A stretch of 4,579 bases of DNA from the IMG/VR virus record IMGVR_UViG_2698536450_000001; one strand, 5' to 3'. The DNA comes from a virus. Lineage: Duplodnaviria; Heunggongvirae; Uroviricota; Caudoviricetes. Below are positions 1 to 4,579 of this stretch, piece by piece; the first letter of the stretch is position 1, and every line of letters begins with the position of its first letter. Under the pieces are notes generated by a model, which saw only the letters and a program-made list of their open reading frames with translations, had not been told where the DNA came from and searched no databases. A program made the translations under genes and the position numbers.

Positions 1-140
1 TCCCGGGCAACCTGTGATGAAGACTGATTAATCGCCGTTGTGGCCACGCGGTTAATCGTCATTGCTGAAGCCGCCGGAATGGCGTTTTTACGAACCCGGC
101 TCAGATTATCAATCGCCTGAGCAAGCCCTTTTATCGCCAT
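1..140 (-). CDS. Z: Tail completion protein Z (lambda gpZ-like), N-terminal portion only; the gene continues beyond the window start
   Basis: Minus-strand ATG at 140-138 (plus-strand cat). My translation of the reverse complement gives MAIKGLAQAIDNLSRVRKNAIPAASAMTINRVATTAINQSSSQVAR..., open to position 1. This resembles the lambda gpZ N-terminus as I recall it (MAIKGLEQAVENL...). It lies directly downstream of FII, as in the lambda late operon. Confidence 0.75.
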   Translation of the reverse strand, partial: MAIKGLAQAIDNLSRVRKNAIPAASAMTINRVATTAINQSSSQVAR

Positions 141-155
141 AATTTCACCCTGCGT

Positions 156-509
156 TTATCGTCGCCGGTTAACAGCGGGTGGTTGCCCACGGTTGAGCCA
201 GAGATAACAGCTTCCCCCGTCATCCGGAGAAACACGATCCACCCAGAACATCTCGCCGTTAATGGTCAGCGTGTCACCACGCCGCACGGCACGCACCGTA
301 TCCGTCCGCACAAATAATGACGGGCTGCTTCCTTCAATACGGACCCCGCCACCGGCAAAACCCAGCGACTCCGGATCGTCAAAAACCCCCTGAACTTCGC
401 CGCCACGTTGTGCCCCCGAGGTGAACTGCGCACAGAGCCCCATCACTTCAACAATCGTTCTGTCCACCCCGGCAAGGGCAGCATCAAAGGAATTCTCAAA
501 ATCACGCAT
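156..509 (-). CDS. FII: Head-tail joining protein FII (lambda gpFII-like), 117 aa
   Basis: ORF track 156..509 minus. Translation MRDFENSFDAALAGVDRTIV...FWVDRVSPDDGGSCYLWLNRGQPPAVNRRR closely resembles my recollection of lambda gpFII (same 117 aa length, ...GDTLTI...FWVDRVSPDDGGSC.LWL.RG.PPAVNRRR). ATG at 509-507 lies 5 nt upstream of the FI stop (minus-strand ATGCGTGA), an 8-nt gene overlap typical of translational coupling. Confidence 0.9.
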   Translation of the reverse strand: MRDFENSFDAALAGVDRTIVEVMGLCAQFTSGAQRGGEVQGVFDDPESLGFAGGGVRIEGSSPSLFVRTDTVRAVRRGDTLTINGEMFWVDRVSPDDGGSCYLWLNRGQPPAVNRRR

Positions 510-870
510 AAACGGCCATTCCGCTCCTAACCATGTCTTTTGCCACTGAGGGGGGCATCAGAATTACTCTGCCAGCATCAACATGCTCAACAGGCTCACC
601 TGTTTCATCGTCAACACCGCACAGGTAAAAACACTTCAGAAGCCTGATACGTTCCAGAATACCAACGTCATCCTCACCGGTGTGCCTGCATGCCTGCTCA
701 TGAACGGTATCATCAACATCTGCGATTTCATTTTCCGAGGCGCAAACCTCCTCTTCCCACTCTGCCACACGCTGTGCGATATCCGCAGCACTCCCCGACA
801 TATCCGCCTCGCGCCCCAGCAGACCAGCCAGTTCACGAAGACGTTTCTGATTTTCTTCTTTTGTTGCCAT
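502..870 (-). CDS. FI: FI-like DNA-packaging / head assembly protein (lambda gpFI-like), about 122 aa
   Basis: Same frame as ORF 502..918, but I place the start at the internal ATG at 870-868 (MATKEENQKRLRELAGLLGRE...). This start is preceded by a GGGAG Shine-Dalgarno-like motif and lies downstream of the post-E hairpin, whereas the 918 start is a GTG inside that hairpin region. The N-terminus is lambda gpFI-like by recall, and the position between E and FII matches lambda. Confidence 0.75.
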   Translation of the reverse strand: MATKEENQKRLRELAGLLGREADMSGSAADIAQRVAEWEEEVCASENEIADVDDTVHEQACRHTGEDDVGILERIRLLKCFYLCGVDDETGEPVEHVDAGRVILMPPSVAKDMVRSGMAVYA

Positions 871-885
871 ATCCAGCTCCCTGTG

Positions 886-913
886 AAAAAAACACGGGGG
901 CATTTCGCCCCCG
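886..913 (-). terminator. Intrinsic terminator-like hairpin plus U-tract immediately downstream of the major capsid gene E
   Basis: Plus strand 895-913 is cgggggc-atttc-gcccccg: a 7-bp all-GC inverted repeat with a 5-nt loop. It is preceded on the plus strand by A7 (886-892), so on the minus strand the hairpin is followed by UGUUUUUUU. It sits 9 nt after the E stop codon (TAA at 924-922) and about 25 nt before the FI start. Confidence 0.5.
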
Positions 914-921
914 CTCACGGA

Positions 922-1950
922 TTATTTCACCTGTACCACCACAAACTCATCCGGATCCGGCAGCACCATCAGCGGCGCGGACTGCGTCATGGTGAATTCA
1001 CAGGACGGATCGCCCACGGTCAGCCAGTGTTTCGGGTAACGGGAAGAAGCCACCACTCCTTCAGACAACGCCTGTGCATCCTTAATGGCTCCATAGCAAC
1101 GAATCCCCTCTGCTGCCGTATTCCCCAGCACCAGCGTGCCCTCCGGCAGATAACGTTTTTCGGTACCGTCCTCTGCCACATAAGACGTTTTCGCTACCAC
1201 AATGGCCAGATCGCCGTAATACCCCTTGAAGGATACCACTGCGCCCAGATCTTTCACTGCCGTTTCGAGTTGTGAATTTGAACCGCGACGGGTATCCATT
1301 TTTTCGCGGAAAAGCTTAAAGCCATTCAGCAGACGCCAGACGGTACCGTCCATAATGGCAATATTCACAAGACCACTGGCCTGATCACAGAAAAGGTCGA
1401 TATCATATGTCGGGTCGAACGTGTCACGATCCTGTTTTGACCACTCCTTACCGCTACCTTGTATGATGTTATTCTTCGTCGATCGGCCAAAATCGACTTC
1501 AATTTTCTCGAACTGGTCTCCTTCCATCGTATATTTGCCATACAGCACGGCATTCACCGCCTGCATTTCTTCCACCTGCACAATAGCGTGCTCTTCCTGT
1601 TTGAGGTTATCAGTGATGATACGCAGACGACGGTAGGCCGGGTCGTTCAGCTGAGCCGGATCTTCACCGGGAAGGCGCTCAACCGCCTGCTGGTAATTAA
1701 ATTCGTGTTTCGGCTTGACGTAGCCCGGACGCAACACGCGGGTTTCACCACCACGATGGCGCAGCACTTTTCCTTCAACGATCGGGGAGACATAGGCCGC
1801 CACCGGCGTTTTTCCGGTAATTTTGTCCAGCATCACCTCTTCGGTGTGGAAATTCACCGTACGGCGGAAAAACAGCTCCAGAAATAGCGCACGGAATTTC
1901 ACTTTTTGTTCGGTATAACCGAGTAACTGGCGGGTCGTAAACAATCCCAT
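922..1950 (-). CDS. E: Major capsid protein (lambda gpE-like), 342 aa
   Basis: ORF track 922..1950 minus. The translation matches lambda gpE along its length by recall (…TTRQLLG.TEQK.KF…LFF…YVSPIV.G.V…RGG…PGYVKPKHE…DPAYRR.RII…EEMQAV.AVL.GKYTM.G…TRRGSNS.LETAVKDLG…GDPS.EFTM.QSAPLM.L.DPDEFV.VQ). ATG at 1950-1948 is preceded by an AAGGA motif. The length is close to lambda gpE (341 aa). Confidence 0.95.
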   Translation of the reverse strand: MGLFTTRQLLGYTEQKVKFRALFLELFFRRTVNFHTEEVMLDKITGKTPVAAYVSPIVEGKVLRHRGGETRVLRPGYVKPKHEFNYQQAVERLPGEDPAQLNDPAYRRLRIITDNLKQEEHAIVQVEEMQAVNAVLYGKYTMEGDQFEKIEVDFGRSTKNNIIQGSGKEWSKQDRDTFDPTYDIDLFCDQASGLVNIAIMDGTVWRLLNGFKLFREKMDTRRGSNSQLETAVKDLGAVVSFKGYYGDLAIVVAKTSYVAEDGTEKRYLPEGTLVLGNTAAEGIRCYGAIKDAQALSEGVVASSRYPKHWLTVGDPSCEFTMTQSAPLMVLPDPDEFVVVQVK

Positions 1951-1978
1951 AAATCAGTTCCTTTCATTCAGAAATCAG

Positions 1979-2000
1979 TCAGGCCACCATGGTGGCCTGA
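1979..2000. other. Perfect 22-bp palindrome (tcaggccaccatggtggcctga) in the D-E intergenic region; candidate RNA stem-loop or dyad-symmetric protein-binding site
   Basis: Read directly: 1979-2000 is its own reverse complement (9-bp arms around the central catg). It lies 8 nt after the D stop (TAA 2010-2008) and about 28 nt before the E start. On the minus strand it is not followed by a strong U-run. Confidence 0.45.
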
Positions 2001-2007
2001 TAACGTG

Positions 2008-2355
2008 TTACGGCAGAGCCGCGTGACTCAGGGCTGTGCCGGCAAAGGCATTTGCCTTTTTGTGTTCATCCACACTGTCAGGCCAGCGGATTGCCTCCGT
2101 CGCAAAGGTCCCCGACTTGTAATAGGTCAGCACCGTCTCTGTGCCTTCAAGCGGCAGTACCAGTATGCCAACCGCACTACCGGCTTTCTGTCCATCCCAG
2201 ACCACCAGTTTCCCGGTGGCTTCATCCAGCATCAGGGGCGTCAGAGCCGGTGTTGCAGAAGAAATCCCGCTGCTGCCTGTGGCGGTATGAGCCGGATCAT
2301 TACCAGCAAAAATACGTACTTCCGCACGCTGTTCAGTGATGGTTTTCGTCACCAT
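2008..2355 (-). CDS. D: Head decoration protein (lambda gpD-like), 115 aa
   Basis: ORF track 2008..2355 minus. The translation contains DPAHTAT...TPLMLD...KLV.WDG...A.VGIL...T...YKSGTF...FAGTA, which matches my recollection of lambda gpD. The size (115 aa versus 110 aa) and position between C and E are as in lambda. Confidence 0.9.
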   Translation of the reverse strand: MVTKTITEQRAEVRIFAGNDPAHTATGSSGISSATPALTPLMLDEATGKLVVWDGQKAGSAVGILVLPLEGTETVLTYYKSGTFATEAIRWPDSVDEHKKANAFAGTALSHAALP

Positions 2356-2391
2356 TTTGTTAAAACCTCATATTGATAGTCAGCACTGACT

Positions 2392-3207
2392 TCATGGCAT
2401 GGCCATGAGCATTTTCACGTCCGCATCACCGTCTGCTGACGTCTGTGACACGCCACCCCGCACCGCTGCCGGTGAATGATTCGCCATGAAATGTTCAAAC
2501 AGGGCGGTTGTGGATGCAGAGACCGGTTCGGCCTTACCTGATCCCGCAGCCAGCACAGCCCGGGCGTTCTCCACGGTCATTCCCGGGCAGGCAGCCAGTT
2601 TTTCAGCCTGCGCTTCTGCCCCTTTTGCCTCATCCAGGGCCATGATCTGATCACGAAGTGAGGGCCCGGCATCCGCCAGTGGTGCAGCCGCCAGGATCGG
2701 GCGGGCTTTTTCCACCGTCATCTCCGGCATCGCCGCCAGCGTTGCCGCCAGTTGTTCACGACCGTTCGCTTCTTCACACGCCATAATGCGATCGGCTTCA
2801 CTCTGCGCGGATGCCACCGGCTGCTGCGGTGCCGCCGCGGCCAGAATCGCCCGGGCCTGTTCAACGCTCATGCCCTGTTGCCCTGCCAGCATCGTGGCAA
2901 GCTGTTCACGTCCTTTCGCTTCCTGACACGTCAGGATCCCCATCACTCGCTGGTTCTCCTGCACTGCGGCTTCCGTTGCAGTTAATTGCGGCATAGTGCC
3001 TCCTCTGACATTACTGTTCAGCGCCGTGGCCATCACACTGATGGCATCCGACGCATTGATTAATTCATCCGCCAGCCCGGCCTCAATGCCGGACTGACCT
3101 TCAAAAACGGCGGCCTCTGTTCCCGTGACGGCATCAACAGACAGACCGGTAAACATCGCCACTTTTTCGGCAAACATCCGGCGCGCCGCATCAATGCGCT
3201 GCTGCAT
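2392..3207 (-). CDS. Nu3: Putative nested in-frame scaffolding protein (Nu3-like), translated from an internal start in the C frame; start position uncertain
   Basis: In lambda, Nu3 is the C-terminal about 200 codons of the C frame, translated from an internal start. The candidate internal ATGs here are at 3207-3205 (DMQQRIDAARR, with GAGG about 11 nt upstream), 3177-3175 and 3156-3154. The C-terminal part is Ala/Gln/Glu-rich and repetitive, as expected for a scaffold. Which start is used, if any, cannot be decided from sequence. Confidence 0.3.
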   Translation of the reverse strand: MQQRIDAARRMFAEKVAMFTGLSVDAVTGTEAAVFEGQSGIEAGLADELINASDAISVMATALNSNVRGGTMPQLTATEAAVQENQRVMGILTCQEAKGREQLATMLAGQQGMSVEQARAILAAAAPQQPVASAQSEADRIMACEEANGREQLAATLAAMPEMTVEKARPILAAAPLADAGPSLRDQIMALDEAKGAEAQAEKLAACPGMTVENARAVLAAGSGKAEPVSASTTALFEHFMANHSPAAVRGGVSQTSADGDADVKMLMAMP

Positions 3208-3897
3208 GTCCTGGCGAACCTCTGCCGGTAAGGCTTCAAACTGATTGCCATCCACCTTGTGCGTCCCTGAGTAAATCAGCGTGATATCCACACCGGCCTG
3301 CGCCAGATGACCGGCATAGCTGACATGGCTCATCATCACGCCAATGGAGCCGATACGGGATGTCTGGGTAACCAGCCGTCGGGAGCAGGCCGACGCCAGC
3401 AGCATGGCTGCAGAACAGGCCGTGTCATTGCACAGTGCCCAGACCGGCTTCTGCTGACGGAGGCGGTAAATCATGTCAGCGCAGTCAAACGCGCCGGCGG
3501 CCTGCCCGCCCGGACTGTCAATGTCCAGCAGTACGCCCCGCACCTGGCTATCCGCCATTGCCTGCTGAAGACAGGCGACAATACCGTCATAGCCTGTCAT
3601 TCCGGAAAATGGCCGCATACCCCCCAGCCGGTGCACCAGCGTGCCGGTCACCGGCAGTACAGCAATACCGTTCACCACCCTGTAAACACGGGCCGGTCGT
3701 TTACCTCCGGCCATGTACTCGTCCGTTTCAGCCAGCATTCCGGGAGCATCAAACTGTACCTGCTGTTGTGGTACCGAAAGACTTGCTGCCCCCATCTCGC
3801 GCCCGAGCGCGCAAAAGAAAACCCGCGCATAGGCGGGCTCCAGAAGCAGCGGTTCATTGAATGCTGCGGCAATAATGTGTGAAAGATTACGTCTCAC
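2392..3897 (-). CDS. C: Prohead protease / scaffold fusion protein (lambda gpC-like, S49/ClpP-fold peptidase domain with C-terminal Nu3-like scaffold domain), 501 aa, GTG start
   Basis: ORF track 2392..3897 minus. The N-terminus RRNLSHIIAAAFNEPLLLEPAYARVFFCAL matches the lambda gpC N-terminus by recall (RNLPHIASMAFNEPLMLEPAYARVFFCAL). Conserved protease-region blocks are present (NGIAVLPV.GTLV, GMTGY.GI, GAFDCAD.I, KPVWAL.ND..CSA..LLAS...RRLVTQT.R.GSIGVMM.H, ITLIYSG.HKVDGN). The start codon is GTG at 3897-3895 (plus-strand cac), preceded by AGGAGA at a 9-nt spacing; an in-frame stop lies upstream at 3936-3934. Confidence 0.9.
   Translation of the reverse strand: MRRNLSHIIAAAFNEPLLLEPAYARVFFCALGREMGAASLSVPQQQVQFDAPGMLAETDEYMAGGKRPARVYRVVNGIAVLPVTGTLVHRLGGMRPFSGMTGYDGIVACLQQAMADSQVRGVLLDIDSPGGQAAGAFDCADMIYRLRQQKPVWALCNDTACSAAMLLASACSRRLVTQTSRIGSIGVMMSHVSYAGHLAQAGVDITLIYSGTHKVDGNQFEALPAEVRQDMQQRIDAARRMFAEKVAMFTGLSVDAVTGTEAAVFEGQSGIEAGLADELINASDAISVMATALNSNVRGGTMPQLTATEAAVQENQRVMGILTCQEAKGREQLATMLAGQQGMSVEQARAILAAAAPQQPVASAQSEADRIMACEEANGREQLAATLAAMPEMTVEKARPILAAAPLADAGPSLRDQIMALDEAKGAEAQAEKLAACPGMTVENARAVLAAGSGKAEPVSASTTALFEHFMANHSPAAVRGGVSQTSADGDADVKMLMAMP
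2542..2952 (-). repeat. Three tandem in-frame copies of a ~35-50 aa motif (about 140-150 nt period) inside the C-terminal scaffold region of C/Nu3
   Basis: Protein residues about 316-452 contain ILTCQEAKGREQLATMLAGQQGMSVEQARAILAAAAP / IMACEEANGREQLAATLAAMPEMTVEKARPILAAAP / IMALDEAKGAEAQAEKLAACPGMTVENARAVLAAGSG. The repeat is visible at DNA level, for example plus strand around 2562-2590, 2700-2729 and 2851-2882 (cgggc.t.ttc.ac.gtcat..cc), and around 2610-2660, 2740-2800 and 2885-2945. Confidence 0.7.
3265..3852. repeat. Direct repeat copy 1 (inside intact C); 588 bp, about 99.5% identical to 3992..4579
   Basis: Base-by-base comparison of 3265-3852 with 3992-4579 at a constant offset of 727 bp. 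I find only 3 mismatches, in the motifs gacaatAccgtc/gacaatGccgtc, cgcatAcccccc/cgcatCcccccc and caccaccctg/caccacccgg, and no indels. Confidence 0.9.
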
Positions 3898-3906
3898 GTG
3901 GTGTTG

Positions 3907-3912
3907 TCTCCT
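3907..3912 (-). promoter_or_regulatory. Shine-Dalgarno sequence (AGGAGA) for the GTG-initiated C gene
   Basis: Minus-strand sequence ...gccggaagAGGAGAcaacaccacGTG; 9-nt spacer to the GTG at 3897-3895. Confidence 0.55.
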
Positions 3913-3966
3913 CTTCCGGCCTGCGACTCTCCGCTATCTGCTGCTGATACGCCTGCGCTATCCACA

Positions 3967-3991
3967 CCGGACGTGAGAGTCCGGCTTTTTA
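3967..3991 (+). terminator. Terminator-like hairpin plus T-tract oriented for plus-strand (antisense) transcription, inside the C-prime / C junction
   Basis: ccggac-gtgaga-gtccgg (6-bp stem, 6-nt loop) at 3967-3984, followed by cttttta (3985-3991) on the plus strand. On the minus strand it is preceded by an A-run rather than followed by a U-run, so it would act as an intrinsic terminator only on the plus strand. Confidence 0.3.
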
Positions 3992-4579
3992 CCCTGAGTA
4001 AATCAGCGTGATATCCACACCGGCCTGCGCCAGATGACCGGCATAGCTGACATGGCTCATCATCACGCCAATGGAGCCGATACGGGATGTCTGGGTAACC
4101 AGCCGTCGGGAGCAGGCCGACGCCAGCAGCATGGCTGCAGAACAGGCCGTGTCATTGCACAGTGCCCAGACCGGCTTCTGCTGACGGAGGCGGTAAATCA
4201 TGTCAGCGCAGTCAAACGCGCCGGCGGCCTGCCCGCCCGGACTGTCAATGTCCAGCAGTACGCCCCGCACCTGGCTATCCGCCATTGCCTGCTGAAGACA
4301 GGCGACAATGCCGTCATAGCCTGTCATTCCGGAAAATGGCCGCATCCCCCCCAGCCGGTGCACCAGCGTGCCGGTCACCGGCAGTACAGCAATACCGTTC
4401 ACCACCCGGTAAACACGGGCCGGTCGTTTACCTCCGGCCATGTACTCGTCCGTTTCAGCCAGCATTCCGGGAGCATCAAACTGTACCTGCTGTTGTGGTA
4501 CCGAAAGACTTGCTGCCCCCATCTCGCGCCCGAGCGCGCAAAAGAAAACCCGCGCATAGGCGGGCTCCAGAAGCAGCGG
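3989..4579 (-). pseudogene. Truncated duplicate of C (C-prime): encodes residues corresponding to about 16-211 of the protease domain, then stops at the duplication breakpoint; its N-terminus and start codon lie beyond the window end
   Basis: ORF track 3989..4522 minus has a translation identical to residues 35-211 of the intact C product, and the frame stays open to the window end. The reading frame ends ...DITLIYSG then TAA (3991-3989), whereas intact C continues THKVDGN.... The stop codon is formed by junction bases immediately outside the repeat. Confidence 0.7.
3992..4579. repeat. Direct repeat copy 2 (upstream partial copy of the C 5' region); extends to the window edge and probably beyond
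   Basis: Same alignment as for copy 1. Homology starts exactly at 3992 (ccctgagtaaatcagc...); the bases just before it (3988-3991 ttta versus 3261-3264 gcgt) differ. Confidence 0.9.

Follow-up and report, generated by a model that had tools for sequence, protein, structure and literature searches.

Does a phage head-gene block that carries a second, broken copy of one of its own genes record an event in the life of the phage, and what do silent differences between the two copies say about selection on the extra one? The question is raised by a stretch of Caudoviricetes DNA of 4,579 nucleotides, analysed as a whole and called the window here, in which a complete gene C is preceded, in gene orientation, by a fragment of another C. 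The initial annotation took the silent differences as a hint that both copies had diverged under purifying selection, and proposed that the fragment came by recombination from a second, closely related phage rather than from duplication on the spot or sequencing noise. The answer reached here is a different one. The 727-nt tandem is probably a false (heterotype) duplication that arose when a sample containing two related prophages or strains of the phage 21 type was assembled or scaffolded.

The minus strand of the window is a colinear lambdoid head-gene block in the order portal-C-D-E-FI-FII, with the repeated fragment lying beyond the broken portal gene. The features are the following:

1-140, minus strand: 5' part of a Z-like minor tail protein gene (RefSeq coding sequence of the near-identical locus L001, 3565-4140, which corresponds to window -435 to 140; Pfam Minor_tail_Z in sibling loci)
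156-509, minus strand: FII-like head-tail joining protein, 117 aa (open reading frame, annotation of relatives and PF05354)
502-870, minus strand: FI DNA-packaging protein, 122 aa as annotated (L001 4502-4870; PF14000)
922-1950, minus strand: major capsid protein E, 342 aa (open reading frame, annotation and PF03864)
2008-2355, minus strand: head decoration protein D, 115 aa (open reading frame, annotation and PF02924)
2392-3897, minus strand: complete gene C, 501 aa, S49 family prohead protease of the phage 21 gene 5 type, with the scaffold nested in it (open reading frame; PF01343)
3265-3852, minus strand: repeat copy 1, within the complete gene; it covers C codons 16-211 and reads A/T/T at codons 73/93/105
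3887-3990, minus strand: final 104 nt of the portal gene; colinearity with intact relatives holds as far as 3990, where the gene is broken
3991, single base: junction base A (T in gene orientation), unlike the bases at portal -94 (C/G) and at C nt 634 (A/G)
3992-4579, minus strand: repeat copy 2, which has C codons 16-211 in what appears to be another natural allele (C/G/C) and is cut off where the window ends

The complete gene C is an ordinary member of a well-known family. Its 501-aa product is identical to the RefSeq protein WP_053899249.1, an "S49 family peptidase"; PF01343 (Peptidase_S49) lies in the N-terminal half and is recorded both for the exact 501-aa product and for a 211-aa fragment of it, and the C-terminal part is scaffold-like. 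The portal stop codon overlaps the C start (GTGA). Over a query of 1,315 nt, the DNA is 99.4% identical to genes 4 and 5 of phage 21 (M81255, OL657228). The three features that define a gpC/Nu3-type protein, namely, the S49 domain, a position between the portal and the decoration and capsid genes, and identity to phage 21, are all present, and by sequence the head module can be assigned to the phage 21 type. The complete gene at 2392-3897 is the same gene, in the same order, as the phage 21/lambda head gene C-Nu3 (phage 21 gene 5, GenBank M81255), but no described member has a partial second copy upstream, and the fragment in the window is the sole case among the records searched. The closest complete genomes, Escherichia coli O39:NM F8704-2 (CP050998) and Z1323HEC0393 (CP148357), differ from window positions 1-3991 at 3-4 places.

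The repeat itself is simple in form. Positions 3265-3852 recur at 3992-4579 as a direct repeat of 588 nt with an offset of 727, ungapped, with exactly three mismatches. The boundary at 3265/3992 is sharp, the 15 bases to the left being unrelated between the copies, and on the right the repeat is limited by the end of the window. Tandem Repeats Finder missed the 727-nt repeat because its period limit was 500. Copy 1 is identical to the closest genomes (loci L001 and L002) and to loci L093 to L102. Alignment and a codon check confirm that all three mismatches are synonymous and that the two translations are identical over the shared region, as had been noted at first. One of the three adjoins a C homopolymer. 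They are listed below as copy 1/copy 2, with the bases found at the same sites among related loci:

3583/4310, minus strand: A/G, codon 105, GGT/GGC, both Gly; population T 17 and C 35
3619/4346, minus strand: A/C, codon 93, GGT/GGG, both Gly; population T 33 and G 19
3681/4408, minus strand: T/G, codon 73, AGG/CGG, both Arg; population A 17 and C 35

These counts come from a sample made up of 80 related loci from IMG/VR together with loci from complete genomes, 52 of which align over the full 588 nt. All three mismatch sites are common polymorphisms. Among the 52, the haplotype of copy 2 at these sites (CGC) is the commonest, with 19 cases, followed by that of copy 1 (ATT) with 17 and by CTC with 16. 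Copy 2 has no private bases; the window as a whole has only two, one of them being the junction base at 3991. Seven complete E. coli genomes have intact C genes that contain the 588 nt of copy 2 without a difference. These data support the identification of copy 2 as another C allele that occurs in nature, and, by the same comparison, the three mismatches appear to be ordinary allelic differences between two functional C genes. The exact match to a natural allele rules out drift after in situ duplication as well as sequencing noise. In this respect, the proposal that copy 2 derives from the C gene of a second, related phage has held.

The synonymous pattern calls for closer reading. Of the single substitutions possible in the 588-nt stretch, 25.8% are synonymous. 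Three silent changes out of three have a probability of 0.017 under random change (0.016 given one transition and two transversions), a nominally significant departure from random mutation or sequencing noise. Between close natural alleles, 79% of the differences are synonymous and the chance of three in three is about 0.5; the silent-only pattern is therefore unsurprising for two natural alleles. It is also partly an effect of truncation, since the first non-synonymous difference between the two phage types (T212A) falls at C nt 634, one base past the end of the repeat. Across the whole of gene C, 25 synonymous and 12 non-synonymous changes separate the window's type from a natural phage that has the copy 2 haplotype. 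The suggestion of purifying selection stands for full-length C genes in phage lineages and fails for the fragment, copy 2 being an allele that already existed in nature.

Where the copied block begins and ends is more telling than the mismatches within it. In gene orientation, C runs through nt 633, a single base follows, and the portal gene resumes from position -93: ...TTTACTCAGGG, then T, then AAAAAGCCGGACTC... Intact relatives read ...CCGGCTTTTT(G/C)CCGCTCTGCAG across the portal break. The T creates an in-frame TAA directly after C codon 211. Both ends of the block adjoin sites that vary in nature: portal -94 is C in 38 loci and G in 41, and C nt 634 is A, the window's type, in 5 loci and G in 76. 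Over C nt 1-700, phages with the exact haplotype of copy 2 differ from the window's own type only at 217, 279, 315, 634, 666 and 669. When the most frequent natural combination (G at -94, CGC, G at 634; n=22) is set against that of the window (C, ATT, A; n=13), the differences are at -94, 217, 279, 315 and 634 and nowhere else. Put differently, the 727-nt block spans the interval from one flanking allele difference, at -94, to the other, at nt 634, and the three mismatches are the differences internal to it.

The same two positions are places where other assemblies break. A 211-aa product cut at nt 633 and named "S49 family peptidase, partial" is on record for 48 contigs, and all 10 C-fragment contig ends that were examined lie at C nt 632-634, whether the contigs came from NCBI drafts, from an ENA MEGAHIT metagenome or from Logan. 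The position is independent of assembler and of k-mer size, as expected if it is set by a forward fork at a single-nucleotide polymorphism (SNP). On the other side, two IMG/VR contigs from different genomes (L004 and L022) start exactly at portal -93 (window 3990); they carry alleles other than those of the window's type, and the break is therefore a generic fork and not the footprint of a duplication. In the sample, 4 of 11 contig starts abut a common SNP, compared with a background of 6%, and the probability that two breakpoints placed at random would each fall next to a common polymorphic site is about 0.06 x 0.06 = 0.004. The breakpoints of a genuine duplication should be unrelated to assembly forks, and those of a heterotype duplication should coincide with positions at which contigs end; the latter is what is seen. 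The idea that the contig ends at nt 633 and -93 are footprints of a real duplication carried by many genomes was considered and rejected, given that the contigs starting at -93 carry alleles of a different type, that the closest complete genomes lack the junction and that the breaks do not depend on the assembler. The right end of the window (C nt 46) was also considered as a fork but is uninformative, as C nt 45 is invariant in the sample and no polymorphic site adjoins it; for this reason, the window is not obviously one whole fork-bounded contig.

A genuine duplication would also be expected to recur, with its junction, in independent related genomes, and this was not found. With a 106-nt probe for the junction, coverage of at least 80% is reached nowhere in 5,426 complete E. 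coli genomes. Among phage and plasmid records, all BLAST matches collapse the 1,315-nt query onto about 729 nt and none has the junction. The exact junction 36-mer and a degenerate pattern that allows any filler base are both absent from GTDB genomes, IMG/VR and the JGI metagenomes, and the 196-aa and 177-aa forms of the truncated protein (C') are absent from the protein collection searched. None of 82 related loci has a second match to the repeat. Wherever the exact C protein is encoded (10 places, the two closest complete genomes among them), the portal gene upstream is intact and the duplication is lacking. A portal allele with T at -94, which would make the junction base templated and the join a simple one at a GG microhomology, was sought and rejected: a synthetic 88-nt probe for it reached only 87 of 88 in all 1,867 records, and the allele occurs in none of the 5,426 complete E. 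coli genomes. The proposal that the fragment arrived by recombination thus finds no support, with the junction seen nowhere else and both ends of the block lying at allele differences that are recurrent contig ends.

How could such a structure arise in an assembly? Suppose that two phage types were present in the sample: the window's own (P1), which has the ATT haplotype, C at -94 of the portal and A at nt 634 of C, and another (P2), which has the CGC haplotype and G at both of these positions. Short reads extended greedily along P2, through terminase, portal and C, would give a contig that ends at the forward fork at nt 634. Extension in the opposite direction along P1, through the tail and head genes and C, would give a second contig, ended by the backward fork at portal -94. 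The two contigs would have an end overlap of 726 nt, with mismatches at the three internal allele sites, and, instead of being merged, they would have been placed end to end with one filler base between them. The filler may have been, for example, a single "n" left by a scaffolder and later turned into a base. We infer that two contigs were actually joined in the source assembly. The untemplated base between the copies, the unique junction and the block ends at forks were all counted in favor of such a join. Counting against it is that 3991 is a called base and not an N or a gap. The standard contigs of de Bruijn assemblers do not abut unlinked unitigs and, together with the called base, this means that a scaffolding, gap-closing, merging or N-to-base step has to be assumed.

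The requirement for two similar prophages in one sample is easily satisfied in E. coli. Genomes that have any head module of this kind have a median of two places for it, and CP050998 carries two prophages that are identical over more than 5.7 kb here. As expected of a heterotype duplication, the copies carry different variants that existed beforehand, copy 1 the P1 allele and copy 2 another natural allele. The complete genomes that contain the exact 588 nt of copy 2 have C, not G, at portal -94, and their nearest upstream difference is at -101. The second phage in the source must accordingly be a slightly different combination from theirs. Types with G, CGC and G are common, and none in the sample is 100% identical to copy 2.

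The main rival is that the join is real and that illegitimate recombination or deletion between co-resident or tandem phage 21-type prophages connected C nt 633 to portal -93 through one base. We regard this as unlikely, though it is the strongest of the alternatives. It requires copy 2 to be a different natural allele, which it is; polylysogeny occurs, and two C genes can even be found on one contig; there is a true base at the junction, with a clean in-frame stop; a GG/GGG microhomology exists between ...CAGGG and ...GCGG(G); and the extra 727 bp is within what lambdoid packaging tolerates. However, both breakpoints would have to adjoin flanking allele differences by chance, the probability of about 0.004 given above for common SNPs being lower still for P1/P2-specific ones, and they would have to fall at the very nucleotides at which unrelated assemblies also break. 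The junction is also found in no other genome or collection searched, its base is untemplated, and a direct repeat of 727 nt is unstable to homologous recombination. Were the join real, the window would show a hybrid prophage with a predicted 211-aa C' open reading frame ended by the junction TAA, a dead portal tail and a complete C with its own ribosome-binding site, and expression of an N-terminal S49 protease fragment upstream of the intact C would be predicted. In that event, the window would show lambdoid mosaicism in the making by illegitimate recombination, as a raw intermediate that selection had not yet tidied up.

A chimeric template is less likely again, and we consider it improbable. 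A template switch between prophage copies during library preparation, PCR or multiple displacement amplification (MDA), or a chimeric long read at a contig end, would account for a real base, for the lack of shared k-mers at the junction and for its uniqueness, and also for the sequence past the junction stopping after 588 nt at the end of the window. Yet a random switch has no reason to adjoin allele differences on both sides, and the end of the window may be a mere chunk boundary. In situ tandem duplication with later neutral drift, or errors of sequencing or consensus at the three sites, would agree with the tandem geometry at an offset of 727 nt and with the mismatch beside the homopolymer, but is effectively refuted. 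All three changes are synonymous, at odds with random change to the extent calculated above, and they reproduce natural alleles base for base, for which the chance is roughly (43/588 x 1/3)^3, or about 1e-5, using the 43 polymorphic sites in the 588 nt; the whole of copy 2 is, moreover, an existing haplotype. A false duplication built from two natural prophage types is thus the reading retained here.

Duplications of this kind have been described elsewhere. In false heterotype duplications, allelic copies end up next to one another in an assembly, frequently at a join or gap (Ko et al. 2022, Genome Biol 23:205, PMC9516828). The vertebrate assemblies of that study and the window have in common divergent versions side by side, variant-specific k-mers, the location of the duplication at a join and a spurious partial gene (PMC9516828). 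They differ in that the versions here would be paralogous prophages or strains in a bacterial sample instead of diploid alleles, and in that a single base, not an N gap, separates the window's copies. By analogy, the duplication in the window is best read as a bacterial counterpart of the vertebrate case. The mosaicism of lambdoid prophages in E. coli offers a second comparison. There, too, several near-identical head modules occur per genome and alleles reassort; many combinations of the states at -94, the three-site haplotype and nt 634 are seen among the loci. Unlike the window, however, the natural mosaics seen here are colinear, as in homologous exchange, and none has a non-homologous join or a duplicated fragment.

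For work on prophages, the case carries a lesson of method: a tandem repeat in polylysogenic E. coli that ends at differences between prophages, and at positions where the contigs of other drafts end, is to be regarded as a false duplication. If its copies differ by silent changes only, this is uninformative on selection acting on the extra copy. Taken at face value, the window would be a partial prophage gene duplication held under purifying selection; on the reading favored here, the signal of selection would belong to the usual differences between alleles of a head gene well known from phage 21 and lambda.

In the window, the head genes lie on the minus strand, and the sites considered here are as follows.

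2008-2355, minus strand: D, head decoration protein gene
2378: single base in the spacer between C and D, lying 23 nt upstream of the start codon of D
2392-3897, minus strand: C, the gene for the prohead protease with its nested scaffold
2518-2949, minus strand: three units of about 45 aa, back to back, in the scaffold-like C-terminal part of C (residues 317-460)
3887-3990, minus strand: end of the portal gene

The base at 2378 is an A (T in gene orientation) that is private to the window, while all 94 of the 94 related loci covering the site have a G (C in gene orientation). It is the only such private base, apart from the junction base at 3991 between the two copies of the C fragment. Either a mutation private to this sequence or an error in the consensus could account for the base at 2378. 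Variation of another kind is seen in the portal gene at -94, counted from the start of C. In intact genes, the codon containing this position (equivalent to window 3990-3992) is either GCA (Ala) or GGA (Gly), a non-synonymous difference that is a balanced polymorphism in the sample (38:41), and the portal stop follows 31 codons later.

The three units within C follow the pattern (R/Q)(V/I)M..E(A/E).G.E....LA...GM(S/T)VE.AR.(I/V)LAA, with 22 of 44 residues identical in an ungapped comparison of units 2 and 3, and no DNA-level repeat corresponding to them is detectable by TRF. Lambda gpC/Nu3 carries a single unit of this type. The 90%-identity protein cluster holding the 501-aa C protein also includes 530-aa portal proteins, its representative among them. 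This shared membership suggests a clustering artefact of the protein collection, possibly originating from fused or overlapping gene calls.

Several complete genomes have an IS200C (IS200/IS605 family) insertion within this head module (matches H13, H14, H19 and H20; e.g., NZ_CP146564.1 166444-171146), and the match there is in three pieces across about 4.7 kb. Head modules can also occur twice. The 45,485-bp contig IMGVR_UViG_2869970738_000006 carries two different C genes (loci L013 and L067) with 99% and 97% identity to that of the window, in the same orientation and about 34 kb apart, an arrangement that could reflect tandem prophages or a mis-joined contig. The closest complete genome, CP050998.1, has two separate prophages (L096, 4449400-4460905, and L097, 5018239-5029744), one of which is flanked by IS66 elements. 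Their portal-to-tail regions show no differences over a stretch that reaches at least from -1700 to +4000 relative to the start of C, and the pair illustrates the kind of repeat at which short-read assemblies break in this region.
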